Shown here: in pieces, positions 15,097 through 37,160 of the stretch | How positions within the stretch are numbered: position 1 is the first letter of the stretch | How the letters are laid out: each line of letters opens with the position of its first letter | Source of the DNA: an uncultured Dehalococcoidaceae bacterium | GTDB taxonomy: Bacteria; Chloroflexota; Dehalococcoidia; Dehalococcoidales; RBG-16-60-22 | Length of the DNA: 64,000 nt | Direction: 5' to 3' | Assembly (NCBI GenBank): GCA_964558675.1 | Contig: CAZLEY010000006.1 | Location: 15,043 to 79,042, forward strand | The notes under the pieces: generated by a model | What the model saw: only the letters and a program-made list of their open reading frames with translations | The model's database searches: none | Told to the model about the DNA's origin: nothing | Program-made: the position numbers and the translations under genes

Positions 15097-15453
15097 TCAG
15101 GGAGATGTTTGTGTTACGGTGCCATTAGCGGTAAATGTATACATGCATCCTGACTTTATCCACCCCCCATTCAGGCTCAGATAGTCCGTTAGCACCAGCG
15201 ACGGCGTATCGTTAGTCTGAACCTGGCTCATGTCCGCCGTAGGACCAACCGGCTTTAAAGCTCCGTTAAGGCTATCGGATAACATCTCTACCACGGCCGT
15301 CTGGATATTATGAAGTTCAGAATCGTAGGATTCAATCTTACCTTCATTAACCAGCTTACCGATATTGGGGATAGCTACCGCGGAGAGACTACTCAACATA
15401 GCCACAACCACCAAAGCCTCGAGAAAATAGCCTATTCCTTGCCTGTTTTGCAT
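15097..15453 (-). CDS. Pilin-like protein with atypical prepilin leader
   Basis: MQNRQGIGYFLEALVVVAMLSSLSAVAIPNIGKLVNEGKIESYDSELHNIQTAVVEML parallels the major pilin at 18256 (..LPNVTGLAGEGQTEAAKAELVTVQTAMDTMM). However, the Glu sits at +4 or +6 from either candidate Gly cleavage site instead of +5. Confidence 0.55.
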   Translation of the reverse strand: MQNRQGIGYFLEALVVVAMLSSLSAVAIPNIGKLVNEGKIESYDSELHNIQTAVVEMLSDSLNGALKPVGPTADMSQVQTNDTPSLVLTDYLSLNGGWIKSGCMYTFTANGTVTQTSP

Positions 15454-18255: not shown

Positions 18256-18621
18256 ATGCGTACGTTTTTGAAGAGAATACACCGAGAAAGTAAAGGCTTT
18301 ACCCTGGTAGAACTGCTTATCGTGGTCGCTATTCTGGGGGTACTGGCGGCGGTAGTCCTGCCCAATGTTACCGGGCTTGCCGGTGAGGGGCAGACCGAAG
18401 CTGCCAAGGCCGAGCTGGTAACTGTCCAGACAGCCATGGACACGATGATGGCAAAGACAGCTAAAACCTCAGTTACGGCCACCTCGGCAACCAGCAATAT
18501 GTCGGCATTCCCCACCGGTAACGTGCTGTACCCAACCTACCTGAGGACGGCGACAACCAAGGGTACATATTCCTGCAGCACTACCGGACTGGTGACACAG
18601 GCAACCACCGGTTATGAGTAG
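18256..18621 (+). CDS. pilA: Type IV pilin (prepilin-type N-terminal cleavage/methylation domain); likely the major pilin
   Basis: MRTFLKRIHRESKG/FTLVELLIVVAILGVLAAVVLPN is the canonical G/FTLxE motif. Start set to ATG 18256, 6 nt after an AGGAGGTG SD; the track start at 18214 is upstream of the SD. Confidence 0.85.
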   Translation: MRTFLKRIHRESKGFTLVELLIVVAILGVLAAVVLPNVTGLAGEGQTEAAKAELVTVQTAMDTMMAKTAKTSVTATSATSNMSAFPTGNVLYPTYLRTATTKGTYSCSTTGLVTQATTGYE

Positions 18622-21800: not shown

Positions 21801-22742
21801 GCGTCTGAGATAGGCATCTGGGCGAAGAAAGAGGAGCGCGACAGGATATTGGAGATAATGAATAAACAGGGGAGCGTAAGTAACGAAGAAGTTCACTTAC
21901 GTACGAAGTCAGGCGATATACGACTGGCCATGTTCTCGTCCGAGCAAATCCTCATTGGTGGTGAACCGTGTTCAATCGCCGTGGTAATCGACATCACCGA
22001 AAGCAAGGCCGCCGAAGAGAAGCTCAAACAGACGCTGGCAAAGCTGGAAAATTCCAGTGCACAGCTGGCGGCAACCAACAAAGAGCTGGAAGCCTTCAGC
22101 TATTCCGTCTCTCATGACCTGCGGTCACCGCTCAGGAGTATCGACGGCTTCAGTCAGGCATTACTGGAAGACTACGAGAATAAGCTTGATGAGAATGGAC
22201 AGGACTATCTGCAACGCCTACGAGGTGCCAGTCAAAAAATGGGTGAACTCATTGATGGCATGCTGAAGCTGTCTCGTCTGACTAGGAGCGAAATGCACAA
22301 AGATAAGGTTAACCTGAGTACGCTGGTAGAGGAAATCACAGCCAGACTTCATGAAAATCAGCCGGAACGCGATGTTAATTTTGTCATTAGTAAAGGGCTA
22401 AGCGACAGGGGAGACCCCGAGCTATTGAGAGCACTGTTCGAGAACCTGCTCGGTAATGCCTGGAAGTTTACCAGCAAGTGTGAGAAGACAAGAATAGAGT
22501 TCGGTACTGCCCAGAATGGTGGCAAGAAAACTTACTTCATAAACGATAATGGTGCCGGCTTCGACATGACCTATGTTGATAAATTGTTTAGCGCTTTCCA
22601 GCGCCTGCACGAAACCAGCGAATTCCCCGGAACCGGCATTGGTCTGGCAACAGTACAGCGAATCATTAACCGCCACGGTGGTAGTATCTGGGCTGAAGGA
22701 GCTGTGGGGAAAGGCGCCACCTTCTATTTTACTCTCAACTAA
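18807..22742 (+). CDS. Membrane sensor histidine kinase: helical ectodomain, TM, HAMP, PAS, GAF, four further PAS, HisKA, HATPase_c
   Basis: 1311 aa. Two TM segments flank a ~160-aa ectodomain. HAMP (RPLHALHKGTEIIARGNLDYKV..DEIGQLSRAFDQM), then a GAF-like region (res ~400-560). H-box FSYSVSHDLRSPLRSIDGF, N/G boxes (LGNAWKF, NDNGAGF, GTGIGLA). Confidence 0.9.
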   Translation: MKVRTKLIIGFSAIVVLLWLIVSYAGNNYGNLKQQFTAVEEDIIPNTMDLTEVEKAADEAYRQSMDYILYDITEAKQSAIYQINYLNDIRKKYVSYEDDIENEEYIANQELISRINMLILGIITVMNLKEMGGSRDQILAQDRNTSLPALLDLEQFINEQKAASIDELAVVKTNFRQAYTTGINWLFISAGLITLIAVAASFLVTRSITRPLHALHKGTEIIARGNLDYKVGTRAQDEIGQLSRAFDQMTLNLTSSMTSIDNLNQEIAERKRAEEALRESEEKFSKAFRSNPDSASITTFKDGIFIDVNESFTRDNGYTREEVIGQSSRELDIWAKPEERDRILKKLRKHGRVAYEEYSARTKSGEIRTMLFSAEPINVAGEACIIAVTTDITDRKKREQLQHDENHVLTLLGQGAELSELLDAIVRLGEEHDTSIKGSVLLFDSSKDCLVQASGPSLPDDYKELLKDGLPIGPNVGSCGTAAYLKERVIVTDIKNSPLFKPFEEAVKRSTNNGLLSCWSQPIISSSGELLGTIANYSNKVGEPDADNLRVLEWSASIAAIAIERKRAEEALANEAIWRRILIEQSLDGIVILDGDSKVYEANQRFAEMLGYSTEEVRELHTWDWDTQWTREELLEMGRNVDETGYHLETYWQRKDGTTIDVEISINGATIAGKKFIFCVCRNITERKQAEMELITNEERFRLIADNATDMISRIQMAPTIRTDYVSPSCFNITGYKQEEFYADPNLGLEMLHPDDREFFNKHIMSGNKKNQKPITIRMFRKDGSIIWIEQTHAMIFDEHGEPSAMHLIARDITARKQAEEALRESEQKFSKAFRSSPNTIAITTLKDGEFIEVNDSFTNITGYTRKEVIGRNSKDIDIWAKAEDRDRMLKMLQDKGQVYNEEFDFRVKSGEIRTWLFSAERIDIGGELCIISMTIDITELKRAQTALSESEEKFSRAFSSSPDIITIVHIKSNTFIEVNDNYINFTGYTRDEVIGHTASEIGIWAKKEERDRILEIMNKQGSVSNEEVHLRTKSGDIRLAMFSSEQILIGGEPCSIAVVIDITESKAAEEKLKQTLAKLENSSAQLAATNKELEAFSYSVSHDLRSPLRSIDGFSQALLEDYENKLDENGQDYLQRLRGASQKMGELIDGMLKLSRLTRSEMHKDKVNLSTLVEEITARLHENQPERDVNFVISKGLSDRGDPELLRALFENLLGNAWKFTSKCEKTRIEFGTAQNGGKKTYFINDNGAGFDMTYVDKLFSAFQRLHETSEFPGTGIGLATVQRIINRHGGSIWAEGAVGKGATFYFTLN
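19611..19994 (+). repeat. PAS module copy 1 of 5 (128 codons, [10 protein letters not shown]-type)
   Basis: [58 protein letters not shown]...IAVTTDITDRK. Same length and frame structure as the other four copies. Confidence 0.8.
21249..21632 (+). repeat. PAS module copy 2 of 5
   Basis: [60 protein letters not shown]...[14 protein letters not shown]-level similarity to copy 4 is visible by eye. Confidence 0.8.
21624..22007 (+). repeat. PAS module copy 3 of 5 (directly abuts copy 2, sharing the linker)
   Basis: ELKRAQTALSESEEKFSRAFSSSPDIITIVHIKSNTFIEVNDNYINFTGYTRDEVIGH...IAVVIDITESK. Confidence 0.75.
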
Positions 22743-22754
22743 AGGAGGACAGAA

Positions 22755-23219
22755 ATGGCTGCAAGAGGAGAAACAATACTGCTGGTAGAGGATAACCCTG
22801 ACGATGTAGAGCTGACGCTGCGGGCATTCCGCAAAAACAAAATCGCCAACAATACGGTGATAGTCCGTGACGGCGCCGAAGCTCTGGACTACCTCTTCGG
22901 CACCGGAACCTATGCTGACCGTGATACCAGCGACGCGCCAAGGATTGTTCTGCTCGATTTGAAATTGCCCAAATTGAACGGACTCCAGGTACTGGAACGC
23001 CTGCGTGCCGACGAGCGTACCAAGCTGACACCGGTGGTTATCCTCACCTCGTCAAAAGAAGAACAGGACCTTATCCGTGGATACAAGTCCGGGGCTAACA
23101 GCTATGTTCGCAAGCCGGTTGACTTTAACCAATTCGTTGAAGCCGTACGCAACATAGGACTTTACTGGTTGCTAATAAATGAATCACCGATTCAAAATCA
23201 GCAGCTACTAAATAGCTAA
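22755..23219 (+). CDS. Single-domain response regulator (CheY/Rcp1-like receiver)
   Basis: ILLVEDNPDDVELT, VLLDLKLPKLNG (phospho-acceptor D), VVILTSS, YVRKP. AAGGAGG SD. It lies 12 nt after the kinase stop. Confidence 0.9.
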   Translation: MAARGETILLVEDNPDDVELTLRAFRKNKIANNTVIVRDGAEALDYLFGTGTYADRDTSDAPRIVLLDLKLPKLNGLQVLERLRADERTKLTPVVILTSSKEEQDLIRGYKSGANSYVRKPVDFNQFVEAVRNIGLYWLLINESPIQNQQLLNS

Positions 23220-23254
23220 CAATGGTAAAAATACTGGTAATCCGGTGACGTAGA

Positions 23255-26224
23255 ATGGAAGATAAAACCATTAATGTCTTGCTTATCGAAGACAACCCTG
23301 ATGATGCCGAGTTGATACGCAGGAAACTGACTAAATCCGTAAACAGACAGTTTACGGTAACAGCTGTAATAAGTTTGAAAGACGGCCTGGCAGAGCTATC
23401 CACCAGTTCGCCTGACCTGATTCTATCGGACCTGGGTCTGCCAGACAGTCACGGACTTGATACGGTCACCAAAGTATTGCAGATGGCGCCCAATATCCCT
23501 CTGGTAGTGTTAAGCGGCTTCGATGACGAAGCTGTAGCCATCAAGGCAGTTCAGCTCGGCGCACAGGACTATCTCGTGAAAGGGCAGATGGATAGCAGCC
23601 AGATAGAGCGCTCCCTTTTCTATGCCATTGAACGGTCCCGGCTGCAGGGGGAACTTGAGCAGCATACAGAAGAACTGAAGAAAATCCAGGCCAATCTTTT
23701 TAAAATCCTGGACAAGAACGCCGATGCCATTATTGTTGTCAGCAAGGAAAAGCAACCACTCTTCATTAACCCGGCCGCGGAATCCCTCTTCAGGCGTAAA
23801 AAGAAAGATTTACTGAATAAACCATTTGCTTTTTCACTTAAGGGAGGCAAGACATCAGAGATTGAAATTAAGTATGACGACGGCGAAATAACCGTAGCCG
23901 AAATGCGCGTGGTAGATATTAACTGGGAGGGTGAACCCGCCTACCTGGCATCACTGCGTGATGTTACCGAGCGTAAGAAGGCTGGGAAGCTCATCCGGCA
24001 GCAAAAGGAATTCTTGAGCAATGTATTTGAGTCTATCACTCAACCCTTCTATGTTGTAGATGCCAATGATTATAGTATTCAAATGGCGAATAAAGCCACG
24101 CGATTTGATAGTTCAGCAGAAGCTAAGAACTGCTATACCGTTGTCCATAATAAAGACAAGCCGTGTGCCGGTGAAGGCTATGTTTGCCCACTTGAAGAAG
24201 TAAAACGTACCAAAAAACCTGTGGTTGTGGAGCATACCCATACCGATGAAGAGGGCAATATAAGAAGCCTGGAAGTACACGGCTACCCTCTTTTTGATAC
24301 CGAAGGAAATGTCGTCCAGATGATAGGGCATTGTTTGGATATCACCGAGCGCAAGCAGGCTGAGAATGCACTGCGAGAGTCAGAGGAAAAGTTCTCCAAA
24401 GCCTTCCGTTCCAGCCCTGACATGATTGCTATCACTACGGTTAAGGAAGGCAGGTTTGTTGAAGTTAATGATAGTTTCACCAATACCACGGGCTATACGC
24501 GTGAAGAGGTGACTGGCCGTAATTCAGATGAGATAAATATCTGGGCAAAGGCAGAGGACCGCGCCAGGATGGTACAGATACTGAAGGAACAAGGCAGAGT
24601 CTACCAGGAAGAATTTCAGTTCCGTACGAAGTCAGGTGAGGTACGTTTGTGGCTTTTCTCAGCGGAACAGATTAATATCGGCAACGAACCATGCCTCATC
24701 TCCATGACCATAGATATCACCGAACGAAAGCAGGCTGAAGAGGCGCTTCGCTTCTCGGATGCCGCTTTCAAGTCTATCCACGAGAGTGTCATCGCCATAG
24801 ACACGGAATACACCATTACACACTGGAATGAAATCAGTGAACAGATTTACGGTGTCAAAGCCTCAGAGGCGATTGGCAAGAATCTCCTGAGTGTTATTGA
24901 GATAGTGGAAAACTACCCTGGAGAAAACGAAGAGCGCTTCAATAACCTTGAGATCAGCGGCTATCACCAGGAGGAGCAACTGCATCGGACAAAGCACGGC
25001 GAGGTGTGGGTTGATGTAAGTTTTCAGGCGATAGAGGGAAACGGTAAACGATACGGATGGGTGTCTCTGGCAACGGCCATAACCCAGCGTAAGCTGGCGG
25101 AAGAGGCATTGAAACGGAGCGAGGAAAAATACCGTGAACTCATCAGTACCTCTAAAGACGGAATAATATCCGTTGACCTACAGATGAGGGTCATCATATG
25201 GAACCAGGGAGCCGAAAAAATATATGGCTATACGGAAAAAGAGATGCTCGGTCAATCAATTATGAAGGTTATCCCCGAAAGAGACAGAGATAAGACGAAA
25301 AAGCTGCTGGCCCGCTTAAGCGATCCCAAATCAGTTAATTCCACGTACAGGGTAGTTGAAGGTGAAGGCCTGAGGAAAGACATGACCGAGGTTCCTATCG
25401 AGCTCTCATTATCATCAAGAAAAGCTGAAGATACGTGTATCGTGACAGCCATCATAAGAGATATTACCGAACGTAAAGAGGCCGAGGAAAAACTGAGGGA
25501 AATAGACAAGATGAAATCTGAATTCCTCTCCAACGTCTCACACGAGCTGCGCACGCCACTACAGTCAATCGGTGGTTTTACCAAGCTAATCCTCGAAGGT
25601 AAAGTACCTGACTTGGCAACCCAGCAAGAATTCCTGCAAATTATAGATAGGGAGAGCCAGCAACTCGGCGTCCTTATTAACAGTCTGCTGGATATGTCAC
25701 GCCTTGAGTCCGGCCATTTTGAGATAAACAAGAGGCTCCTGCCGATAAGGGATACTATCGTCGATTCCATACAGATATTCCATAGTCTGGCCCGGGACAA
25801 GGACGTCGAACTCAGCGAAGAAATACCACCCGTACTACCTGAGATAGAGATAGATGCCGAACGACTGAGGCAAGTGGTCATCAACCTGCTCAGCAACGCC
25901 ATCAAATTCAGCGACCCCGGAGGCAGTGTCAAAGCCAGAGTAGAGAGCCGAAACGGAGAGCTGCTGTTTCAGGTCAGCGATAAGGGTGTCGGCATAAACG
26001 AGGAATCCATGCCGCACCTCTTTGAAAGGTTTTACAGAGCCGAAGATAAGCTGGCCAGGGGCGGCACCGGACTGGGACTCTATATATGCAGGCAGATTAT
26101 CGAGGCACATGGTGGGCATATCTGGGCGGAGAGCGAAATAGGTAAAGGTAGCACTTTTAGTTTTACCTTGCCCCTGAATGGCAAAGGAGGAAACGGTCAT
26201 GCAAAAGAAAATCCTAGTAATTGA
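23255..26224 (+). CDS. Hybrid sensor kinase: N-terminal receiver, multiple PAS, HisKA, HATPase_c
   Basis: 989 aa. Receiver ([37 protein letters not shown]). At least four PAS regions. H-box [19 protein letters not shown], plus [18 protein letters not shown]. Confidence 0.9.
24347..24730 (+). repeat. PAS module copy 4 of 5
   Basis: [60 protein letters not shown]...[11 protein letters not shown]. Confidence 0.8.
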
Positions 26225-26606
26225 GGACGACCCGGCTACATCAAGGCTAGTAGATTATTCACTCCGGCACGAAGGTTACCAGGTGTTCACGGCTTCAAAC
26301 GGATTGGATGGGATAAGGAAAGCGCACAATGAAATACCGGACCTTATCATTCTGGATGTGATGCTACCGGGTATAGATGGCTTCGAAATCTGCCACCAGC
26401 TGCGGTCTGAGCCTGATACCAATAAATTACCCATTCTTATGTTCTCAGCCAAAGCTCAGGAAATAGACAAGAATACCGGTCTGAAAGTAGGCGCCGACGA
26501 TTATCTGTCCAAACCCGCTGCCCCGGCTGACATAGTTAGCCATGTAGAGGCTCTGCTGGCAAAGAAGACACACGCAGCAACAGACCAGGAGAAAGTGAGT
26601 GGATAA
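26199..26606 (+). CDS. Single-domain response regulator, overlapping the pilB start
   Basis: [42 protein letters not shown] 26199 lies 7 nt after an AAAGGAGGA SD (track start 26178). It overlaps the kinase end by 26 nt, and its stop overlaps the pilB GTG start. Confidence 0.85.
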
Positions 26607-28308
26607 AGAAAATACCAAATCCCTCACCCCGGATAAATCTAACAAAAAGAGTTTGGGCGAGATGCTGGTTGAGGAGAACCTGCTCACCCGGGAGCAACTG
26701 GAGAGCGCATTAGCGCTGCAGCGACAGCAGGGAGGTAAACTTAACGACATTCTGATAAAACAAGGCCTGGTTAAACCTGAGACACTGGCCATCATGCTCA
26801 GTATCCAGCTAAACTTACCGTTAATAGACCTGAAGAGACACACCATACAGCCTCAGGCACTCCAGCTTATCCCCGAAGACATGGCCCGGAAACACGCCCT
26901 GATACCGATGGACATCGTTAATGACTCACTGATGGTGGTTATGGCTGACCCGGAGGACATACATACTATTGAAGACCTCAAGGCTCAGGCGAAGATGAGG
27001 GTTGAGGTATCGCTTGGCGTCCGCTCCGATATTGAACGCGCTATTAACATTAACTACAGGTCAAGCGGCGCCATTGAGAACAATGTAAGCAAGTTTGCGC
27101 CAGCCTCAGAAGATAAACCAGATGACACCCCGATACTTACGGCCAGGACACCGATTGCCGAGACCATTGACCTGCTTGTCGCCCAGGCAGTCAGGGACAG
27201 GGCATCGGATGTTCACATCGAACCACAGGAAGACAGGCTCCGGATTCGCTACAGGATTGATGGCATCCTGCATGACATGTTTTCCTTCCCACTCAGTATC
27301 CACATGCCGCTGGTATCACGCATAAAAATTCTGGCCGAGATGGACATCTCAGAACAGAGGCGCCCTCAGGACGGGCAATTCTCCGTAAAACTTGGCGATA
27401 ATGAAGTTGATATCCGCGTCGCCACTATGGAGACGCCCTGCGGAGAGAGAGTAACACTGCGGATTCTGGACAAGTCTCTGGCTCTATTCACTTTATCGGA
27501 ACTCGGGTTTTTACCCGGTATTCTTAAGACATACAAGGCGATGCTGAAGAGCCCTATCGGCATGATACTGGTGAGCGGCCCGACAGGTTCCGGCAAGACG
27601 ACCACACTTTACGCATCAATAAACGAGCTGGACAGGAATGAGCGCAATATCATGACGATTGAAGACCCCATTGAATACAACTTTATGGATATCAACCAGA
27701 CTCAGGTTAATAATAAAGCCGGGATTACCTTTGCCAGTGGCCTCAGGGCAATCATGCGCCACGACCCCGATGTCATCCTGGTCGGTGAGATACGGGACAC
27801 AGACACGGTGACAACCGCCATCCAATCCGCCCTCACCGGTCATCTGGTACTTTCCTCGATTCATGCCAATGATACCGTCGGTGTGCTTTCTCGACTGATG
27901 GACCTGGGCGTCGAACCGGCCTCAATATCATCAACATTGATTGGAGTCGTTGCCCAGCGCATGGTCCGGCGTATCTGCCCGAACTGCCGTGCCCCTTACC
28001 AACCAACCGAAGAAGAGATGCAGGCGTTCAACAAGGAAATTGAGCGGGAGACCCCCACATTTTATTCTGGAAGCGGATGTAACCTCTGTGCCAATACCGG
28101 CTACCGGGGTCGAACGGGTATCTTCGAATTCCTGATAATGAGTGAGGATATAAGGAAGATGCTAAGGAGCAATGCCGGCTCCAGTGAAATTAGAACACAG
28201 GCGATTAGCGAGGGAATGGTAACGATGAAACGTGACGGGATGCTCAAGGTAAAAGAGGGCATTACATCAATAAGTGAAGTGCTGCGAAATGTATTTTCTA
28301 TTAACTAA
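26599..28308 (+). CDS. pilB: Type IV pilus assembly ATPase (GspE/PilB family)
   Basis: 569 aa. T2SSE N-terminal domain (LGEMLVEENLLTREQLESALALQ...LIPMD), Walker A GPTGSGKTTTLYA, Asp/His boxes, and a tetracysteine motif (CPNC...CNLC). Confidence 0.9.
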   Translation: MDKENTKSLTPDKSNKKSLGEMLVEENLLTREQLESALALQRQQGGKLNDILIKQGLVKPETLAIMLSIQLNLPLIDLKRHTIQPQALQLIPEDMARKHALIPMDIVNDSLMVVMADPEDIHTIEDLKAQAKMRVEVSLGVRSDIERAININYRSSGAIENNVSKFAPASEDKPDDTPILTARTPIAETIDLLVAQAVRDRASDVHIEPQEDRLRIRYRIDGILHDMFSFPLSIHMPLVSRIKILAEMDISEQRRPQDGQFSVKLGDNEVDIRVATMETPCGERVTLRILDKSLALFTLSELGFLPGILKTYKAMLKSPIGMILVSGPTGSGKTTTLYASINELDRNERNIMTIEDPIEYNFMDINQTQVNNKAGITFASGLRAIMRHDPDVILVGEIRDTDTVTTAIQSALTGHLVLSSIHANDTVGVLSRLMDLGVEPASISSTLIGVVAQRMVRRICPNCRAPYQPTEEEMQAFNKEIERETPTFYSGSGCNLCANTGYRGRTGIFEFLIMSEDIRKMLRSNAGSSEIRTQAISEGMVTMKRDGMLKVKEGITSISEVLRNVFSIN

Positions 28309-28382: not shown

Positions 28383-29594
28383 ATGTCATACAGGTATAGA
28401 GCCTATACAGTCGATAAGAAAATCGTTCAGGGCACGATTGAAGTCGCCTCGGAAAGCATGGCGGAGGGCACCCTGTACAGGGCCGGCTATCAGCATATCC
28501 TCAGTCTTGAGGAAACGCCGCCGGGGACGAATATTAAAGGAATGATACCGACCCTCTTTGGAGTTAAAACCCAGGATGTGATTGACTTCTCCAACCAGCT
28601 AGCCACCCTGACTGAGTCCGGCATCAGCATATATACATCGCTGCAGCTACTTAAGGGACAGGCTTCCAAGGTGGCTCTTAAAGACGTCATTAATGGATTA
28701 ATCGAGGAAATCCAGGTAGGCACCTCTTTCTCCCAGGCACTCAGCTACCATCCTGAGGTGTTTTCGAATACCTACTGCCAGGTGATAAGGGCAAGCGAAC
28801 AGTCAGGCAGTCTGGAATTAGGGCTGAGGCAGGCCGCCAGCTACATGGAGAAACAGACAGTCACATCCCAGAAAATTAAACGCGCCATGTTCTATCCTGC
28901 CTTTGTGTTACTTATGGCCATCGGCGTAACTATTTTGCTCATCACGGTCGCCCTGCCGCCACTTGTCGACCTGTTTTCCTCGATGGACGTGAAACTGCCC
29001 TGGATGACACAGATGCTTCTTTCCATCAGTGGCTTCGTTCTCGACCATACTCTCTATATAATCATGGGATTGCTTATTCTCATTCTATTAACCATCGGCC
29101 TTCTGAGATTACCATCAGTAAAGCTGGCCAAAGACAGGCTAATGCTGCAAATACCACTCATAGGCGCCATTAACATTGAGCGCGGTGTGCAACATTTCTG
29201 TCAGACAGCTTCAATGCTGCTGAAAGCAGGCCTGCACCTGCCGAATGTAATGGACATCTCCATCCAAACAAACAAAAACCGGATTATCCGCGAGTCTTTA
29301 AGGAATGTTAAAGATAAGCTGGTACAGGGAGAGGGTCTATCACAGCCACTGGCCGAGGTTGAGCTTTTTCCTCCACTCCTGGCAGAGATGGTAGTAGTGG
29401 GAGAGAAGACCGGTTCTATGGACTCTACCCTCGCCACGCTCGCTGACTATTACGAACAGAGGGTTGACCACAGGATTGAAATCCTTACTTCGATGATAGA
29501 GCCAATATTGACCTTAATCATCGGGATAGTAGTTATATTCATCGCTCTTTCCATGATAACGCCGCTATATTCAATACTGAGGTCCATGCACTAA
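28383..29594 (+). CDS. pilC: Type IV pilus / T2SS platform protein (GspF/PilC family)
   Basis: 403 aa with two GspF-type repeats (FSNQLATLTESGISIYTSL and FCQTASMLLKAGLHLPNVM) and 3 TM segments. Confidence 0.9.
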   Translation: MSYRYRAYTVDKKIVQGTIEVASESMAEGTLYRAGYQHILSLEETPPGTNIKGMIPTLFGVKTQDVIDFSNQLATLTESGISIYTSLQLLKGQASKVALKDVINGLIEEIQVGTSFSQALSYHPEVFSNTYCQVIRASEQSGSLELGLRQAASYMEKQTVTSQKIKRAMFYPAFVLLMAIGVTILLITVALPPLVDLFSSMDVKLPWMTQMLLSISGFVLDHTLYIIMGLLILILLTIGLLRLPSVKLAKDRLMLQIPLIGAINIERGVQHFCQTASMLLKAGLHLPNVMDISIQTNKNRIIRESLRNVKDKLVQGEGLSQPLAEVELFPPLLAEMVVVGEKTGSMDSTLATLADYYEQRVDHRIEILTSMIEPILTLIIGIVVIFIALSMITPLYSILRSMH

Positions 29595-29616: not shown

Positions 29617-30018
29617 ATGACAGGGACAATAAAACAGAGGTTAGCCCGGACAATAAACCGGGCTCAGGGCCAGAAAGGTCTGGGACTGGTAGAGACACTG
29701 GTGGCCGTGGCCATTCTAGGGACCTCTGTGGTTGCCTTTGTCGCCGCCCTTTCGGCGGGGTCAATCGCCGTAGGTGAGCAGGACGAGGAAGTAGTGGCCC
29801 AGAGACTGGTAAGGTCACAGCTGGAATATACTAAAAGCTATAGCTATGACCCGAATGCCACTACCTACCCGACTATAGATGTGCCGGCAGGTTACGGCCT
29901 GTCCGTTATGACCGGCTCAGTCCCGGGGACTGATACCAATATACAGAAGATAACGGTCACCATCTCAAGGGACGGGCAGGATATATTAGCTGTTTCCGAC
30001 TATAAGGTGAACCGATGA
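29617..30018 (+). CDS. Minor pilin / pseudopilin (prepilin-type N-terminus)
   Basis: AQGQKG/LGLVETLVAVAILGTSVVAFV, with Glu at +5. 133 aa. Confidence 0.7.
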   Translation: MTGTIKQRLARTINRAQGQKGLGLVETLVAVAILGTSVVAFVAALSAGSIAVGEQDEEVVAQRLVRSQLEYTKSYSYDPNATTYPTIDVPAGYGLSVMTGSVPGTDTNIQKITVTISRDGQDILAVSDYKVNR

Positions 30019-30473
30019 TGACTGCTAATGAACGTGGTTTTACCATGGTTGAGCTGGTAATGGCGATGGCCGCTACCGGGCTCATTATAAGTTTTCTGGG
30101 AACAAGCATATACCAGATATTCACCGTTACCGAATACGGCAATGACAGGCTTATCGCCATGCATGAGCTGCAAAATGCCTCTCACTGGTTCAGCCTTGAT
30201 GGTCAGGGTGCGAAATCAGCTGCCGCAGGCAGCGAGCTGGTTCTCACGCAAACAGATAACTCAACGATTACCTATTCATTAACGGGGATGGAATTACGAC
30301 GCACCGCTGGTGGCGGCCAGATGACCCTGGCCAAGAATATTACCAGTGCCGATTTTTCCATGGGTAACCGCGTCATTACCATGTCCCTGACTTCATCCCC
30401 TGAGGGACGCGACAGTGTAAGTGAACAGGGAACCTACAGGGTTTATCTGAGACCAGCCGAGGAAGAGGAATAA
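30015..30473 (+). CDS. Minor pilin / pseudopilin (PulJ/PilW-like)
   Basis: ANERG/FTMVELVMAMAATGLII, with Glu at +5. ATGA overlap with the upstream gene. 152 aa. Confidence 0.75.
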   Translation: MMTANERGFTMVELVMAMAATGLIISFLGTSIYQIFTVTEYGNDRLIAMHELQNASHWFSLDGQGAKSAAAGSELVLTQTDNSTITYSLTGMELRRTAGGGQMTLAKNITSADFSMGNRVITMSLTSSPEGRDSVSEQGTYRVYLRPAEEEE

Positions 30474-31996
30474 TGAACAGCGAGAAGGGACAGGCCCTGC
30501 CAATGGCCATGATGGCACTTGCTCTCGGCACTCTGGTGATAACGCCTTTTCTCAGTCATGCCGGCAGCGGCCTTATCGGTTCACTCGCCTATGGCGAAGC
30601 AATCATCCACCAGAGCAGCTGTGACGCCGGCGTCGAGCACGCCATCTGGAATTTGACCAGAGGTAGCCTGGCCGAGCAGATACCCGAACCGGGCGATGAG
30701 GTCACCTATCAGCTTGGCGAAGAACTCAATGGCTTAACCACCAGCATTACCGTAACCGCGAACGTTACCGGGGACGGAGGTGGCTTGGCTGGTGAGATCG
30801 GGGATACCGTGATAGATACTCTCGAGTTTGATACTGCTTACGGAAATATGCCCGACATCATACATATTTCCGGTGACATCTACGCTATAGCCTACCGTGG
30901 CAATGGTAACGACGGCTTCTTAAAGACAGTTGAAATAGCTTCCGATGGTGACATCACCAACAGCGTGGTAGACAGCTTAGAGTTTGATACCAGTTACGGA
31001 ATCTACGCGGACATTCTCCACGTCTCCGGCAACATATACGTCATAGCCTACCAGGGAAATGGCAACGACGGTTTCTTAAAGACCGTGGAGATAACCACTG
31101 ATGGTGAAATTACCAACAGCGTGATAGATACCCTGGAGTTTGATAACAGAAACGGGAGAGAACCGGTTATTACTCACGTAGCAAGCAATATTTATGCTAT
31201 CGCTTACCGGGGTAATGGCGGCGATGGCTTCATCAAGACTATAGAGATAGCTACTGATGGTGAAATTACCAACAGCGTGATAGATACCCTGGAATACGAT
31301 ACCAGTAACGGTTATTACCCGGATATCAGTTATATCTCCGGTGACGTTTACGCCATTGTCTACCGGGGTAATGGCGGCGATGGCTTCATCAAGACTGTGG
31401 AGATAGCTTCGGATGGTGAAATTACTAACAGCGTGATAGATACCCTGGAATTTGATACCAGTAACTGTTATTACCCGGATATTGTTGATGTGTCCGGTGA
31501 CATTTATACTATTGCCTACCAGGGAAACGGCAATGATGGCTTCCTGAAGACCGTGGAAATAGCTACTGATGGTGAAATTACTAACAGCGTGATAGATACC
31601 CTGGAGTTTGATACAGGCAACGGTAGAACACCGGATATCATCAATATCTCCGGTGATATCTATGCTATTTCTTATCGGGGCAACGGGAGTGACGGCTATC
31701 TAATAACAGTTGAGATAGCCACAGATGGAGATATCAACAATACTGTAATTGATACCCTGGAATTTGATACATCTTATGGCAATTTTCCGGATATCATCCA
31801 GATTTCCGGCGGCGTTTATGCCATTGCTTATTGCGGACCAAGGTCAGACGGTTTCGTTAAGACTGTAGAGATATCCACGAATGCGGGAACCTCCGCTGCC
31901 TACGAAATTTCATCTACCGCCGGAGACAGGACTATCCGTGCTTTCGTTAATACCGCCAACACGACCGCTTCTATTTTGGCGTGGCAAGTAGAATAA
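30473..31996 (+). CDS. PilX-like pseudopilin N-terminus fused to seven 52-aa tandem repeats (predicted beta-propeller); putative pilus-associated tip/adhesin protein
   Basis: 507 aa. N-terminus MNSEKGQALPMAMMALALGTLVITPFL (no Glu5, as in PilX/GspK) followed by CDAGVEHAIWNL. Residues 113-468 are 7 copies of VIDTLEFDT..G..PDI..ISGDIYAIAYRGNG.DGF.KTVEIA.DGEITNS. TAATG overlap with the preceding minor pilin gene. Confidence 0.6.
   Translation: MNSEKGQALPMAMMALALGTLVITPFLSHAGSGLIGSLAYGEAIIHQSSCDAGVEHAIWNLTRGSLAEQIPEPGDEVTYQLGEELNGLTTSITVTANVTGDGGGLAGEIGDTVIDTLEFDTAYGNMPDIIHISGDIYAIAYRGNGNDGFLKTVEIASDGDITNSVVDSLEFDTSYGIYADILHVSGNIYVIAYQGNGNDGFLKTVEITTDGEITNSVIDTLEFDNRNGREPVITHVASNIYAIAYRGNGGDGFIKTIEIATDGEITNSVIDTLEYDTSNGYYPDISYISGDVYAIVYRGNGGDGFIKTVEIASDGEITNSVIDTLEFDTSNCYYPDIVDVSGDIYTIAYQGNGNDGFLKTVEIATDGEITNSVIDTLEFDTGNGRTPDIINISGDIYAISYRGNGSDGYLITVEIATDGDINNTVIDTLEFDTSYGNFPDIIQISGGVYAIAYCGPRSDGFVKTVEISTNAGTSAAYEISSTAGDRTIRAFVNTANTTASILAWQVE
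30809..31876 (+). repeat. In-frame tandem repeat array, 156-bp period, about 6.8 copies
   Basis: Unit boundaries fall at 30809 + n*156. The identical 30-mer ggtaatggcggcgatggcttcatcaagact occurs at 31211 and 31367 (exactly one period apart). Long shared strings such as gatggtgaaatta(c/t)(c/t)aacagcgtgatagataccctgga recur across units. Confidence 0.9.
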
Positions 31997-32012: not shown

Positions 32013-32126
32013 ATGAATTTCGATTCGACAGTTCTAGCTAACACATTCCTTGCCTGCATCGCCCTTACCAACCTTGTAATACTGGCGATACTTTACAGAA
32101 ATAGTAAGAGTAATCAAAAATCATAA
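32013..32126 (+). CDS. Small hydrophobic protein (37 aa), below the ORF-track cut-off
   Basis: ATG 32013 lies 7 nt after an AAGGAGG SD. MNFDSTVLANTFLACIALTNLVILAILYRNSKSNQKS* is one TM helix plus a basic tail. It fills the 147-nt gap between two pilus genes. Confidence 0.5.
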   Translation: MNFDSTVLANTFLACIALTNLVILAILYRNSKSNQKS

Positions 32127-32143: not shown

Positions 32144-32734
32144 GTGAAGAACAGGAAACTACCGATAGTACTGCTAGTTATTGTCCTGGTCGTGGTGTAT
32201 TATCTGCTCGGCACAGGCTATTTGAAACTACGGCGGGGGAATGAGGCGCTGGCATCCAAAATAACCAGTGTCACCGGGGATTTGACGCAAATCGCCCCAC
32301 CCCCGGCTGACCTTGACCAAAGATTGGCCGCCGCTCAAGCAGATTGGGACGCGGCCAGGAACGCATTCCCCGAGAAGCTGAACACTACCCAAATAGTGAA
32401 CACTGTTCTCGAGCTTGCCGACGATGTGGGGGTTAAGGCAATACCCCTGGTAACGCAACCCTGGACAACAGAGAGCGTTAACGAACATGGCTACTCTGTT
32501 TTTCGATTTAATACAGCTGTAACGGGTACTTCGGAACAATTGACCAGCTTTTTAAGACAGCTGGAAAACAATGGTATCAAGACGCTTATAATGGAGAATT
32601 TAAGTGTGAATAAAGAAAACGAATCATCTGTAAAAGAAAGTATCTCTGAAGGTATTACACGGATAAACGCCAGTCTGGAAATAGCTGTCTATGTTCAATC
32701 TCCGGCTGCTGAGCTAGAGGAGAAGGATATATAG
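32144..32734 (+). CDS. PilO-like pilus biogenesis protein
   Basis: 196 aa. N-terminal TM (LPIVLLVIVLVVVYYLL), a coiled segment, then a PilO-type C-terminal domain (IVNTVLELADDVGVKAI...FRFNTAVTGTSEQLTSFLRQLEN). GTG start. Confidence 0.6.
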   Translation: MKNRKLPIVLLVIVLVVVYYLLGTGYLKLRRGNEALASKITSVTGDLTQIAPPPADLDQRLAAAQADWDAARNAFPEKLNTTQIVNTVLELADDVGVKAIPLVTQPWTTESVNEHGYSVFRFNTAVTGTSEQLTSFLRQLENNGIKTLIMENLSVNKENESSVKESISEGITRINASLEIAVYVQSPAAELEEKDI

Positions 32735-32736: not shown

Positions 32737-34260
32737 ATGTACGTTACCCTGAATATCAGTAACAGCAGTATCAGAATCCTTGCCATAAAGGGAAGGCAGG
32801 TAAAAAAGTGGGAAAGCACGGACCTGATGGCCGGATTGGTCCGGGACGGCTTAATTATGCAGCCAGAGGCCGTCGGCGAGGTCATTGACGCCCTGTTTAA
32901 ATCAACCAGAATACCCAAAGAGAAAGTCATTATCAGCCTTTCGGGTCTGTCCTTTACTTACCGATTTGTCAGCCTGCCCAGGATGAAATCCGGGCTTATG
33001 GAGGAAGCCGTCCAGCGTGCCGCCAAGAAAGAAATATCACTACCTCTGAATGAACTGTATCTTACCTGGCAGCCTGTACCCGGTCCGGAGGATGAGCAGG
33101 CCTTTTTCGTCCTGGGGGTGTCACGACACCTGGTTGACGCCATGATTCAGACATTTAGGGTAGGCGGAGTGGAGCCCTATCTCATGGATTTGCAGCCGCT
33201 GGCGTTAGCCAGAGCCGCCAATCGCGGCGATGCTATAGTCGCTAACCTGGAACCCGAATGCTATGATATCGTCATTATTGCCAATGGTCTGCCCACGGTT
33301 ATACATACTATAAGCCCAAGAGGTGAGGGAGCTACTCTCGACGATAACATCCATCGATTGGCGGACGAGCTAACCAAAACAGTTGCCTTCTACCAGAGCA
33401 GCCACCCGGAAAATCATCTCAGCCCAGCTACTCCCCTGCTGCTGACCGGTTTACTGGCTACCGAGGTTACCACACAAGGACTGCTCCAGGCTGAGATAGA
33501 ATACCCCATCGAACCCCTGATTCCGGCACTGGAATTTCCATCTGACCTGCCCGTTGCCTCATACGCGGCCAGCATGGGGCTGGCTCTTAAGAAAATTCCA
33601 CAAAAACCCGTAGATAAAGGTAATGGTGTCCATTTTCACGATATAAATATCAATATATTATCCGGGAAATTCCGTAAACCAAAAGCACAGCCAGTACCAG
33701 TACGACATGTTGTCCTCGTAGCTTTGCTGCTAATCGCTGTTGCCCTCATTTATCCTCTCTACCAGGGTAAGAGTCAGCTCGGTGCTAAAAACACGGACCT
33801 GGAATCCAGACTGAGTGAAGTCAACCGGGAACACAACCTGGCTAACCTCGTCGCCGAGGAGACAACCCTGAAAGAGGACACCATCAGTGAAATTATCGCC
33901 AGCGCCGATAATCTAACAGCGGTAAATCAGAGCATCCTGAGTACCAGAGGCGACTTTACGGATGATTTTCAATTGATTTCCAGTGCTCTTCCGCCTAAGC
34001 TATATTTAACATCAATAGAGATAGACAGGAACTTGATTAAGGTACAGGGGGAAACCGATAACGTTTTTGCAGTTATTGACTACGTAACAGCCCTGGAGAC
34101 CCATGAGGCATTCTCCGAAGTACGCATTACCGAGCTGGATGAAGCTATTTTGATTATCAATGAAACTGATGACAGCGAAGCCATACAGGAAGATAGCAGC
34201 ACGATAACCTTTGAAATCCTGATTAATAAATCGGTCTCAAAGGATATAGAAAGAGAATAA
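32737..34260 (+). CDS. PilM-PilN fusion protein (actin-like ATPase domain, TM, PilN-like domain)
   Basis: 507 aa. PilM-like N-terminal ~300 aa (LNISNSSIRILAIKGRQV...FVLGVSRHLVDAMIQTFRVGG.EP..MDLQPLALARA). TM (VVLVALLLIAVALIYPLY). The coiled coil and C-terminus match the PilN pattern (LPPKLYLTSIEIDRNLIKVQGETDNVFAVIDYVTALE). Confidence 0.7.
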   Translation: MYVTLNISNSSIRILAIKGRQVKKWESTDLMAGLVRDGLIMQPEAVGEVIDALFKSTRIPKEKVIISLSGLSFTYRFVSLPRMKSGLMEEAVQRAAKKEISLPLNELYLTWQPVPGPEDEQAFFVLGVSRHLVDAMIQTFRVGGVEPYLMDLQPLALARAANRGDAIVANLEPECYDIVIIANGLPTVIHTISPRGEGATLDDNIHRLADELTKTVAFYQSSHPENHLSPATPLLLTGLLATEVTTQGLLQAEIEYPIEPLIPALEFPSDLPVASYAASMGLALKKIPQKPVDKGNGVHFHDININILSGKFRKPKAQPVPVRHVVLVALLLIAVALIYPLYQGKSQLGAKNTDLESRLSEVNREHNLANLVAEETTLKEDTISEIIASADNLTAVNQSILSTRGDFTDDFQLISSALPPKLYLTSIEIDRNLIKVQGETDNVFAVIDYVTALETHEAFSEVRITELDEAILIINETDDSEAIQEDSSTITFEILINKSVSKDIERE

Positions 34261-34333
34261 GGAGGGAATACGCTCCAGGCTAAAGGATATGCGTGGAGGA
34301 CATTCGGCATATTTATGAAATCTTTATGGACTC

Positions 34334-34362
34334 TTGACGAATTATTTACAATCCTTTACACT
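34334..34362 (+). promoter_or_regulatory. Candidate sigma70-type promoter for the HTH/kinase/regulator unit
   Basis: TTGACG (34334-34339), 17 nt, TACACT (34357-34362), in an AT-rich spacer after the pilus operon. Confidence 0.45.
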
Positions 34363-34442
34363 ATTTTTTATAATAGTAATTGATAATAATATATAGTATT
34401 GAAGTATACCGAGTATACTCAGGTAGTACCAGGGAGGTCTGC

Positions 34443-34655
34443 ATGGCTGTGTCAATAAATGGAAATACGTACTATAGAACTGCAGAGGTCTGCCAGATGG
34501 TCGGTATAAGCAAGAATACCTTATTTCGATGGCTTAAAGCAGGCTACCCGGGTACCAATTCGCGCCGGGACAGGAGAGGATGGCGGCTATTTACCGGAGA
34601 CGATATTAATAAACTGAAAGCCGAGGCTGAACTGATAATCGAAGCGGAGCAATAA
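34443..34655 (+). CDS. MerR-superfamily helix-turn-helix protein (small)
   Basis: MAVSINGNTYYRTAEVCQMVGISKNTLFRWLKAGY...RGWRLFTGDDINKLK. ATG 34443 lies 6 nt after a GGGAGG SD; the track start at 34380 is in AT-rich non-coding-looking sequence. Confidence 0.7.
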   Translation: MAVSINGNTYYRTAEVCQMVGISKNTLFRWLKAGYPGTNSRRDRRGWRLFTGDDINKLKAEAELIIEAEQ

Positions 34656-34715
34656 CCTTATAGCAGGAATAAGCTGGGGAGATAATTAAATGATTGCCAA
34701 CTGTGAGCAGATTCG

Positions 34716-37160
34716 ATGAGCGCTATAGGAAAAGAGCTTAGAAAATCGGGTGTTGACATTATCGGTGATGTTCCCTGGGACACACACCTCTGTTTATTCT
34801 ACCAGACCAGCGAGGACATGCTTAACCTGCTGGTGCCCTACTTTAAAGCCGGGTTAAAAAATAACGAATTTTGCCTCTGGGTTACTTCGGAGCCTTTAGA
34901 TAAAGAGTCTGTCGAAAAGGCGTTAAGAAAGTCCATCAGTAATTTTGATAAATACCTGGAAAAGGGACAAGTAGAGATAATCCCTCATACCGAATGGTAT
35001 CTCAAGGGGGGTACCCTTGACCTGCAACGAGTTACCGAGGGCTGGTCAAACAAACTAAACCAGGCCCTCGCCAGCGGTTACGACGGCATGAGGATGTCAG
35101 CCAATACTTCCTGGCTTGAAAAAAAGGACTGGCCGCAATTCATGGAATATGTAAAGGCAGGGCAGGATACCATCGGCAAGGGCAACTGGCTCTCTATATG
35201 CGCTTATTCTCTTAATAAGTGTGGGGCACCTGAAATCATAGACGTGGTCAGTAACCACCAGTTCGCTCTCATCAGGCGAGGTGACAAATGGGATACCATC
35301 GAGAGATACGAGCGCAACCGGATGAAGAATGAACTGGACAGGCGCGTGAAAGAGCTCAGGTGTCTCTACGATGTTGCCAACATCAGCGGAGCACCGGATA
35401 TCACGCTATATCAAAGGTTTGAAGAGATAACCAATCTGCTCCCCAGAGCCTTTCAATATCCCGATATTGCCTTTGCCAGAATTGCCATCAATGGGCGTGA
35501 GTTCAAGTCAGGTAACTGTAGCAAGACCAAGTGGCGGATGTCCGCAGACATTATCGTGCGTGGAGAGAAAGTAGGGACTGTAGAAGTCGGCTATGTGAAA
35601 GCGCCATCTAATACCGACAACAACCTTTTCTCGAAAGAAGAAAGGCTATTGCTTGACGCCGTCGCCGAGCGCCTTGGGATAATTGCGGAACACAGGCAGA
35701 TAGAAGAGGCCTTGCGGGAATCCGAGGAAAAATTCTCGAAGGCCTTTCACTCAAGCCCGGCTATCTTCTCCATTTCCACGTTAAAAGATGGGAAATTCAT
35801 TGAAGTTAATGATAGTTATACTAATTTTACCGGTTACTCCCGTGAAGAGACTATCGGCCGCACCTCGATTGAAACAGGCAACTGGATGTTTGCCGAGAAC
35901 CGTAATAGAATGCTGAAGTTACTGAAGGAAGAAGGCAGAGTTCGAAATCTGGAAGTTGAATCACGCCATAAATCAGGCGAAGTACGCATATCCCAGCTTT
36001 CCGCCGAGCTTATCAACATCGGCGAGGAACCGTGTGTTATTGCCGTTGTAAATGACATTACCGAGCGAAAACAGTCCGAAGAGCTGCTTAAGACAGTTTC
36101 CTTCAATTCACCGCTGGGCATCTATATTGTGCAGGATGATAAGCTTCAATATACCAACCCGCAATTTCAGAAGCTTACTGGCTACAGCGAAAAGGAGTTG
36201 TTGGGCAGAGACCTCCTCAGCCTTGTCGCTATTGAAGACAGCGACGCGGTAAAGTCAAGCACGGTATTCACTCTTCAGGAAAAGAACCCCTACCCGTGCG
36301 AATACAGGATTCTCAACAAGAATGGTCAGATAAAATGGGTCCTGCAGACCGTTTCCCCTATCCACTACCAGGGCAGAGAAGCAATACTCGGAAACCTCAT
36401 GGACATCACCGAACGCAAGTATCTTGAGAGGAAAGTCATTGAATATGAAGAACTGAGCAAAATGAAGAGTGACCTCCTGGCCACGGTCTCGCACGAACTC
36501 CGCACCCCGCTGGCGACAATAAAAGGCTACTCCACCATGATGATTGACTACTTCTCCAAGCTCACTTCTCATGAAAAAAGGGATTATCTAAAATCCATAG
36601 ACCATTCAACAGACCGGCTGGCTATACTTGTCGACAACCTGCTGGACACGTCGCGAATGGAGGCCGGACTGCTGAAACTGGAAAAGGCTCCAACCAGCGT
36701 ATCCAGACTTATCCGTGGCGTTGCTACCGAAGCGGGAATCAGAGACAATGAACATCACATCGTTACCATGCTGTCAAAGAAACTGCCCAAGCTAAACATC
36801 GACGCCAAACGTATTCGGCAGGTTCTGGACAACCTTATTGATAACGCCATCAAATACTCTCCAAAAGGAACGGAAGTAGTAATATCAACCCGACAATCCA
36901 GCCAGGAGCTCCTCGTCAGCATTGCCGACCAGGGCTCAGGTATACCTGCGGAGGAGTTGACCAATATCTTCGACCGGATGTACCGGATCGAGCAAAGGCT
37001 GTCTTCAGGCGTAGAGGGTATCGGGCTGGGACTATATATATGCCGGCGGCTGGTAGAAGCGCACGGTGGCCACATCTGGGTAGAGAGTAAACTGGGAAAA
37101 GGAAGTACGGTCTACTTCACCCTTCCTATAGATAATGCGGCCCAGATAGTAAAACAATGA
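34716..37160 (+). CDS. Cytoplasmic sensor histidine kinase: MEDS domain, GAF-like, two PAS, HisKA, HATPase_c
   Basis: 814 aa with no TM segment. The N-terminal THLCLFYQTSEDMLNLLVPYFKAGLKNNEFCLWV...LSICAYSLNKC..EIIDVVSNHQFALI fits the MEDS pattern. H-box [19 protein letters not shown], plus [18 protein letters not shown]. Confidence 0.85.
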   Translation: MSAIGKELRKSGVDIIGDVPWDTHLCLFYQTSEDMLNLLVPYFKAGLKNNEFCLWVTSEPLDKESVEKALRKSISNFDKYLEKGQVEIIPHTEWYLKGGTLDLQRVTEGWSNKLNQALASGYDGMRMSANTSWLEKKDWPQFMEYVKAGQDTIGKGNWLSICAYSLNKCGAPEIIDVVSNHQFALIRRGDKWDTIERYERNRMKNELDRRVKELRCLYDVANISGAPDITLYQRFEEITNLLPRAFQYPDIAFARIAINGREFKSGNCSKTKWRMSADIIVRGEKVGTVEVGYVKAPSNTDNNLFSKEERLLLDAVAERLGIIAEHRQIEEALRESEEKFSKAFHSSPAIFSISTLKDGKFIEVNDSYTNFTGYSREETIGRTSIETGNWMFAENRNRMLKLLKEEGRVRNLEVESRHKSGEVRISQLSAELINIGEEPCVIAVVNDITERKQSEELLKTVSFNSPLGIYIVQDDKLQYTNPQFQKLTGYSEKELLGRDLLSLVAIEDSDAVKSSTVFTLQEKNPYPCEYRILNKNGQIKWVLQTVSPIHYQGREAILGNLMDITERKYLERKVIEYEELSKMKSDLLATVSHELRTPLATIKGYSTMMIDYFSKLTSHEKRDYLKSIDHSTDRLAILVDNLLDTSRMEAGLLKLEKAPTSVSRLIRGVATEAGIRDNEHHIVTMLSKKLPKLNIDAKRIRQVLDNLIDNAIKYSPKGTEVVISTRQSSQELLVSIADQGSGIPAEELTNIFDRMYRIEQRLSSGVEGIGLGLYICRRLVEAHGGHIWVESKLGKGSTVYFTLPIDNAAQIVKQ
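35688..36071 (+). repeat. PAS module copy 5 of 5
   Basis: [60 protein letters not shown]...IAVVNDITERK. Same 128-codon length as copies 1-4. Confidence 0.75.

Follow-up and report, generated by a model that had tools for sequence, protein, structure and literature searches.

The operon described here lies on a 64,000-nucleotide stretch of contig CAZLEY010000006.1, from the assembly GCA_964558675.1 of an uncultured Dehalococcoidaceae bacterium; this whole stretch is referred to below as the window. In this operon, genes for response regulators and PAS histidine kinases are followed, in that order, by those for PilB, PilC, two pilins, the protein studied here, a 37-amino acid (aa) membrane protein, a GspM/PilO-like protein and a PilM-PilN fusion. 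The protein in question, hereafter the target, has 507 aa and is encoded, together with its stop codon, by the open reading frame (ORF) 30473..31996 on the + strand. We propose that it is probably the cap minor pilin (the position of PilK, GspK or ComGG, here called PilX-like) of a secretin-less type IV pilus, that it is devoid of the glutamate at position 5 of the mature pilin (Glu5) and that it carries, as an insertion, a predicted seven-bladed β-propeller which would act as tip adhesin.

The N-terminus of the target reads MNSEKG↓QALPMAMMALALGTLVITPFL (full form, MNSEKGQALPMAMMALALGTLVITPFL), a short charged leader followed by a hydrophobic helix. MNSEKG (30473..30490, +) is a putative class III leader ending at the invariant Gly6, the predicted site of cleavage by a prepilin peptidase being G↓Q. 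Among 42 homologues, Gly6, Gln7 and Ala8 never vary, and Gly6 is also invariant in a second set of 23; at position +1, Gln or Phe is found among homologues. Position +5 of the mature target is Met11, replaced by Leu, Ile or Val in homologues, so that Glu5 is lacking. In hhalign alignments, Gly6 falls on the cleavage-site Gly of N_methyl/Glu5 prepilins and Met11 on their Glu5. An earlier reading of this DNA, made by a model from the letters alone (hereafter the sequence-only reading), had described a polar leader and a hydrophobic helix without Glu5, as we observe with the invariant Gly6 and the Met at +5.

The same reading had noted that the gene is coupled by TAATG to two genes with prepilin motifs, themselves preceded by pilB-pilC, and this arrangement is indeed found. 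The stop codon of 30015-30473 overlaps the start codon of the target (TAATG), an ATGA overlap joins 29617-30018 to 30015-30473, and both upstream products contain the motif G↓(L/F)xxxE. The first (29617..30018, +; KG↓LGLVE) is a GspI/PilV/ComGE-like minor pilin; its matches to GspI, PilV and ComGE are sub-threshold, its N_methyl score of 17.4 bits is below the cut-off of 21.2, and hhalign aligns it to Glu5 pilins with a probability of 96.6%. The second (30015..30473, +; RG↓FTMVE), a minor pilin at the ComGF/GspJ position, matches Pfam ComGF with 27.7 bits (cut-off 27), N_methyl with 21.6 bits (cut-off 21.2) and the NCBIfam model pilin_ComGF with an E-value of 4e-8. Before them lie the genes for the PilB-type extension ATPase (26599..28308, +; T2SSE 431 bits, MshEN 67 bits) and the PilC platform protein (28383..29594, +; T2SSF 188 bits).

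The sequence-only reading had also counted seven head-to-tail copies of a 52-aa repeat in the target, and the count holds. Tandem Repeats Finder detects a period of 156 nucleotides (52 aa) over 30869-31873, with nucleotide matches of 74-76% and scores of 761-1016. The seven units, of 156 nucleotides each (30809..31900, +; starts at 30809, 30965, 31121, 31277, 31433, 31589 and 31745), begin at residues 113, 165, 217, 269, 321, 373 and 425 and span residues 113-476. They align without gaps, with 62-77% identity and 14 invariant columns, and such a repetition far exceeds chance. Within the unit, D3, F7, D8, P15, Y29, G31, G36, T40 and I43 are nearly fixed, and most of the variation is held by positions 9-14 (in the loop joining strand 1 to strand 2), 32-34 and 44-52. 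The G+C content is 0.45 across the 3' two-thirds of the repeats and about 0.50 in the flanks.

The structure of the target was predicted with AlphaFold2 from an alignment of 42 sequences. The model has a mean predicted local distance difference test score (pLDDT) of 88.8, with about 96 across the repeats, and a predicted template modelling (TM) score of 0.72. It contains two helices (residues 8-36 and 38-63) and two strands (76-80 and 90-98), then, from residue 115 to residue 467, four strands in each unit (28 in all), and three final strands (475-483, 486-495 and 498-506). As supposed from the letters alone, a seven-bladed β-propeller is predicted with high confidence; closure of the ring is suggested by the fold matches and by the rule of copy numbers described below.

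With this model, Foldseek returned 503 matches in the PDB at E ≤ 0.001. The best are the lectins PLL, PLL2-5 and PHL of Photorhabdus and CV39L of Chromobacterium (E 1e-12 to 1e-9), which match over about 340-360 residues with TM-scores of 0.66-0.73, normalised to the lectin, and 8-13% identity. Seven-bladed glycosidases (BT3686 and BACINT_00347) were also returned by this search, together with a putative neuraminidase, their E-values being 1e-10 to 5e-9; these matches speak for an enzymatic propeller, a glycoside hydrolase or a sialidase-like domain which would be brought to the tip of the pilus or to the surface of the cell. However, their TM-scores (0.57-0.60) are below those of the lectins, and no catalytic family of Pfam or NCBIfam matches. 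Moreover, a near-perfect seven-fold repeat, with the same conserved residues in each blade, characterises multivalent binders rather than a single active site; an enzymatic function is therefore, in our opinion, very improbable.

For the whole target, no family of Pfam or NCBIfam is above its cut-off; DUF3203 (24.8 bits for a cut-off of 25.4) and the KIB1-4 propeller (15 bits) are sub-threshold chance matches. Searched one by one, the seven units gave zero Pfam families at E ≤ 10, and a phmmer search of the target against PDB sequences gave nothing relevant, with chance matches only. Membership of the unit in WD40, Kelch, FG-GAP/VCBS, NHL, YVTN, RCC1 or PQQ was rejected since no model matches; the sequence-only reading had failed to recognise the first five of these in the unit, in agreement with our result. 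Membership in the PilY1 family (PF05567 / IPR008707) was also rejected, no Pfam match being obtained. The analogy with PilY1 which that reading had drawn can be kept in a functional sense at most, since the nearest folds are PLL-type lectins and PilY1 is not among the 50 best of the 503 significant Foldseek matches.

We then observed that the target exists in a shorter form. A profile of its first 110 residues retrieves about 200 proteins, mostly of 132-136 aa, and propeller-less orthologues align to residues 1-97 and 474-507 with 46-52% identity, leaving residues 98-473 as a single gap. One of these orthologues, the 134-aa protein P0324, is encoded in an operon made up of PilB, PilC, a 137-aa gene, a 149-aa N_methyl pilin, P0324 itself, a 190-aa gene and PilMN; loci and proteins of this propeller-less kind include L081/L082 (7001-7405), P0342 and P0369. 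In P0387 and P0380, a Lys-rich low-complexity insert aligns within the gap. Both kinds of operon are present in the metagenome-assembled genome (MAG) JBGPRB01, propeller-less in L082 and propeller-bearing in L075.

The presence of propeller-less orthologues in the same operon slot shows that the propeller represents about 375 aa inserted into the β-sheet of a complete 134-aa pilin module. The N-terminal part of this module (residues 7-97; 30491..30763, +) comprises the hydrophobic α1N, α1C and the first two β-strands, and its C-terminal part (residues 474-507; 31892..31993, +) the three β-strands which complete the sheet, both according to the AlphaFold2 model and to the alignment with the propeller-less orthologues. 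Between them, the inserted module (residues 98-473; 30764..31891, +), absent from P0324 and the other orthologues of the same slot, is composed of a short Gly-rich linker and the seven-bladed propeller seen with AlphaFold2 and Foldseek. In the models, the propeller is placed in the loop between the second and third strands of a five-stranded pilin sheet. The sequence-only reading had anchored the propeller on its own pseudopilin helix; a pilin-type helix is indeed present, but the propeller is not a C-terminal appendage of it.

The AlphaFold2 model of the propeller-less P0324 (pLDDT 83) consists of one helix of about 59 residues (6-64) followed by a meander of five strands. The order of these elements is as expected of a type IV pilin, the fold being assigned from topology only. 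When compared by hhalign with modular pilins having Glu5 and N_methyl, the N-terminal profile of the target family gave a probability of 87% over 93 columns (E ~1e-6) and the profile of the propeller-less family 91% over 107 columns (E ~1e-6); the two upstream pilins, used as positive controls, gave 92-97%. A bias due to transmembrane helices was rejected as the cause of this match, a membrane-anchored GspM-like control giving 0.3%. These profile comparisons support homology of the target family to real pilins.

The cap position of the target is proposed because its gene is the last of three pilin genes, after the GspI-like and ComGF-like ones, because Glu5 is absent and because a domain is inserted in the manner of GspK. 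In cap subunits the absence of Glu5 is the expected state; PilK, PulK (GspK) and ComGG are equivalent cap subunits, and cap minor pilins prime assembly (PMC10191384). As in GspK, the domain is inserted into the pilin β-sheet (PMC8179133), but that of GspK is an α-domain and that of the target a seven-bladed β-propeller. The target further differs from GspK, PulK, PilK and ComGG by having no detectable T2SSK, PilX_N or ComGG membership, and its operon differs from the GspK-GspI-GspJ system by having three minor pilin genes, not four. No gene for a secretin was found in the operon, and Chloroflexota are described as having no outer membrane (PMC12488501), in line with the secretin-less pilus that the sequence-only reading had envisaged.

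The following mechanism can be proposed. A prepilin peptidase would cut the target after Gly6, and the mature protein would join the upstream GspI-like and ComGF/GspJ-like minor pilins in a complex priming assembly on PilC/PilB. Type IV filaments grow from tip to base, so that the priming complex would stay at the tip. The propeller would then be displayed there as an adhesin, and its variable inter-strand loops would probably bind a glycan or some other ligand at a surface, in the way of PLL-type propeller lectins. We infer both the tip location and the adhesion. As for the ligand, it would most likely be a glycan, because the fold is lectin-like, the variability is focused on loops and ConA/LamG domains co-occur with the propeller in relatives (see below).

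Several observations weigh against a cap pilin with a lectin-like tip adhesin. The N_methyl model does not match the target at E ≤ 1, a propeller-deleted construct at E ≤ 0.1 or the 23 N-termini at E ≤ 10, and PilX_N, T2SSK, ComGG and their NCBIfam equivalents match neither the target nor this construct nor these N-termini. For the construct and the N-termini, as for the target, all Pfam and NCBIfam families stay below their cut-offs. Searched against PDB sequences, the N-terminal profile gave chance matches only. With the propeller-less model, Foldseek found in the PDB no significant match and no pilin, the best E-value being 0.29. The likeness to lectins, after which seven-bladed glycosidases and WD40 proteins rank, is at the level of the fold only. 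None of the ten window ORFs tested encodes a prepilin peptidase (Peptidase_A24), and no pilT was found in the 64-kb window among the ORFs tested, a PilT query matching only PilB. Finally, the width of the propeller could hamper its threading through the cell envelope or an S-layer.

To place the target among its relatives, one genome per GTDB species was scanned. Full-length relatives were found only in Dehalococcoidales and other Dehalococcoidia/Chloroflexota MAGs. In each of the 37 loci with a full N-terminus, the gene is immediately preceded, on the same strand, by pilC and the two minor pilin genes, so that the linkage to pilB/pilC anticipated by the sequence-only reading is general among these loci; a pilO-like gene and pilMN lie downstream in each of the 34 loci extending far enough. 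The operon of L026 is the closest; compared with the window, the genes around the counterpart of the target have 79-93% identity, but this counterpart itself only 63%. By region, the target and P0027 share 92% identity in the N-terminal part, 54% in the propeller and 91% in the C-terminal part. The contrast is the same with P0033 and P0058; in cases of this kind, the pilin module is 86-92% identical and the propeller 52-54%. These values indicate joint evolution of both halves of the pilin module, the propeller being exchanged or having diverged much faster. We infer that it behaves as an exchangeable cassette, diverging or being swapped independently of the pilin module. The units of one gene are mostly 54-79% identical to each other, and units at corresponding positions of distant orthologues 44-63%, the identity matrix showing no diagonal; the closer similarity of units within a gene indicates concerted evolution or homogenisation of repeats.

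These comparisons bear on the possibility that the propeller is a priming or regulatory factor like PilY1, mainly starting or stabilising assembly or counteracting retraction, with no external ligand. In addition to the priming role of cap minor pilins (PMC10191384) and the gene order strictly conserved across loci, which are compatible with it, PilY1 is described in PMC7541494 as a propeller protein which primes type IVa pili with minor pilins. However, propeller-less orthologues occupy the same slot of complete operons, including in the MAG which has both kinds; the propeller cannot therefore be required for priming as such. It is also the fastest-diverging part of the target and, as mentioned above, PilY1 is matched neither in Pfam nor among the best structural matches. 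A purely priming role is unlikely.

We also searched 1.84 billion representative proteins with the seven-unit profile. The unit family comprises at least 1,645 clusters (50% identity) at E ≤ 1e-3, and 643 at E ≤ 1e-30. Among the best 150 representatives, 99 have 7 copies and 14 have 14, and 21, 28 and 49 copies also occur; copy numbers in multiples of seven are what a structural quantum of seven blades predicts. Roughly a third of these 150 have the N-terminus of a type IV filament protein (by a regular-expression classification extended by eye), and about 25 proteins are stand-alone single propellers of about 380 aa without signal peptide (e.g. P0188, P0220). In the scan of GTDB species genomes, matches restricted to the propeller, with 40-60% identity, come from Thermoplasmatota, Bathyarchaeota, Nitrosopumilus, Patescibacteria, Nitrospirota, Planctomycetota and Desulfobacteraceae, as well as from MAGs labelled Gammaproteobacteria. 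Units are also carried by other proteins of the GQALP/GQVLP type; one of them, P0121 (2,690 aa), has a PilX-like N-terminus and 49 units, that is, seven propellers in a row. P0123 and P0124 are further extreme members of the family. In Dehalococcoides sp. JdFR-56 (L029), a 1,029-aa PilX-like propeller protein is encoded in the operon slot of the target.

Among these relatives, the propeller is fused to canonical prepilins with Glu5, for which N_methyl is above the cut-off in L068 and L053, and the prepilin-propeller genes of L035, L053, L056 and L068 are directly downstream of pilB-pilC. It is also carried by archaeal Pilin_N pilins (L028, L034 and L042; 31-42 bits for a cut-off of 25.2). In L042 (3418-9971, Thermoplasmatales chromosome CP070798.1), the propeller-pilin gene is just downstream of T2SSE and T2SSF genes. 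The proteins of L042, L028 and L034 combine Pilin_N, with or without a ConA/LamG domain, with 7 or about 14 propeller units. More generally, the propeller module co-occurs in relatives with the ConA/LamG lectin domain (PF13385), often in archaeal pilins. These independent fusions, to N_methyl prepilins encoded after pilB-pilC and to archaeal Pilin_N pilins, support the display of the propeller on filaments.

A different anchor was found in the Dehalococcoidales MAG BS750m-G43 (JADHXC010000003.1), in which L038 (5263-15295) is a complete archaellum cluster in a bacterium, with two archaellins, ArlG/F-like genes, a KaiC-type ArlH, two T2SSE ATPases and an ArlJ-like T2SSF protein. Its ArlF/ArlG-like protein (7839-9446, 535 aa) has a propeller of seven such 52-aa units, placed after the N-terminal helix and before the FlaF Ig-like domain. 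FlaF-like architectures similar to this one are seen in P0015 and P0026. The same MAG also has a propeller-bearing pilus operon (L012). The paper on Chloroflexota archaella (PMC12488501) does not mention a propeller, and in the literature, the coverage of which was incomplete, we found no published description of the 52-aa unit family or of a propeller in ArlF.

Since the stator complex is formed by ArlF and ArlG (PMC12488501), this protein brings an argument for an envelope anchor. The target would then remain in or near the membrane within the basal machine, and its propeller would bind S-layer or wall glycans of the cell itself, fixing or aligning a secretin-less machine as ArlF/FlaF does with the archaellum stator. 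The failure of the target N-terminus in every curated prepilin model is compatible with such a role, as is the presence of alignment-complex genes (pilO-like, pilMN) beside the target. However, the target occupies the slot of the cap pilin, and its carrier is orthologous to a 134-aa protein with a pilin-like helix and sheet, Gly at -1 and homology, by hhalign, to Glu5 pilins. Moreover, the propeller has been joined independently to bona fide Glu5 prepilins and to archaeal pilins, which points to display on filaments, and its diversification between near-identical operons fits an external, variable ligand better than a ligand of the cell itself. We thus consider that an envelope anchor is rather improbable, and retain, as the probable reading, a cap pilin with its propeller as tip adhesin.

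Downstream of the target, a conserved small single-pass membrane ORF (32013..32126, +; 37 aa), located between it and the PilO/GspM-like gene, corresponds to a 49-aa gene similarly placed in L001 (62% identity, E 3e-9). It is followed by the gene of the GspM/PilO-like bitopic assembly protein (32144..32734, +), for which NCBIfam GspM (E 4e-7) and Pfam T2SSM_b are both sub-threshold and which is syntenic in all loci, and by that of the PilM-PilN fusion (32737..34260, +; PilM_2 35.7 bits, PilN 33.9 bits). In the relatives L001 (11801-12865) and L003 (11658-12731), pilT comes directly after pilMN; at this place (34261-37160) the window has instead a small helix-turn-helix gene (34380-34655) and a gene for an 814-aa PAS histidine kinase. 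Genes for several very large PAS-rich histidine kinases and response regulators are found on either side of the pilus operon (18807-26224 and 34716-37160), and a near-identical motif recurs in their products. The arrangement of a regulator followed by pilB is kept in L001, L003 and L081. Unlinked to the operon, a candidate major pilin (KG↓FTLVELLIVVAILG) is encoded at 18256..18621 (+; N_methyl 36.6 bits). A 118-aa ORF at 15097-15453 on the - strand resembles it past the N-terminal helix (IPNIGKLVNEGK... versus LPNVTGLAGEGQ...). This ORF, which has a degenerate N-terminus (QGIGYFLEA) and no Pfam match, may be a divergent pilin paralogue.

A propeller on a minor pilin has a precedent in the thin type IV pilus of Nanosynbacter lyticus TM7x (Saccharibacteria), of which PilX2 is a proposed tip adhesin whose deletion halves host binding (PMC11623550). 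Like the target, PilX2 is a PilX-like minor pilin from a monoderm type IV pilus locus, with no canonical PilD signal predicted, and its heptabladed β-propeller is closest in fold to PLL-type lectins (CV39L, 6GXS) (PMC11623550). However, the propeller of PilX2 is described as a C-terminal domain with RCC1 repeats, whereas the unit of the target matches neither RCC1 nor another Pfam family and its propeller is inserted inside the pilin β-sheet; the target also differs by its Dehalococcoidia host. Modular pilins are moreover an established class (PMC8179133), with PilB-vWA and the ConA-like lectin pilin PilC of Streptococcus sanguinis and more than 1,200 modular pilins in InterPro (PMC8179133, PMC9934059). 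The target shares with them a pilin carrier with a grafted ligand-binding module and display on a monoderm type IV pilus, and relatives of its propeller share PF13385 ConA/LamG. Modular pilins nevertheless show a canonical, Glu5-containing IPR012902 motif and bear their graft at the C-terminus, behind a linker, whereas the target has a degenerate N-terminus and its module is an insertion without database signature. As it lacks such a signature, the propeller would have escaped a domain-based survey of modular pilins.

With PLL-family lectins, the propeller has in common seven similar blades of about 50 residues and, in its family, the stand-alone versions without signal peptide; it differs from them by the low identity given above and by the absence of a relation at the level of hidden Markov models, and these lectins are soluble proteins, not pilin fusions. 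The propeller of PilY1/PilC (IPR008707) is also a β-propeller at the tip of type IV pili with minor pilins, but PilY1, which is not a pilin, docks on the complex of minor pilins. The design of the target thus belongs to the class of modular pilins and is not categorically new, and the sequence-only reading, correct for the most part, had gone too far in calling the protein a candidate novel propeller tip or adhesin, with regard to modular pilins (PMC8179133) and to the TM7x propeller minor pilin (PMC11623550). What sets the target apart is the uncatalogued repeat, its insertion in the manner of GspK, the propeller-less orthologues of the same slot and the occurrence of the module on four kinds of type IV filament anchor in both prokaryotic domains.

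We suggest tentatively, as a broader possibility which we hold with less conviction than the cap-pilin reading, that the 52-residue repeat is a universal plug-in ligand-binding cargo for the whole superfamily of type IV filaments. It would have been grafted independently into the cap pilins of Dehalococcoidia, the prepilins of Patescibacteria and other MAGs, the Pilin_N pilins of Thermoplasmatota and the ArlF/ArlG-like stator of horizontally acquired archaella, and exchange of cassettes together with intragenic homogenisation of the repeats would renew its specificity.

How simple type IV filaments gain binding functions is an active question. The loci described here offer a natural experiment, a cap pilin which has or lacks a 375-residue propeller while the rest of the operon is identical, at times within a single genome, and they extend the GspK-style insertion design to a β-propeller. 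The links of this module to bacterial pili, archaeal pili and a bacterial archaellum suggest that one adhesion or anchoring module is common to both prokaryotic domains. The target itself is a concrete candidate for the attachment of uncultured Dehalococcoidia to particles, partners or substrates.

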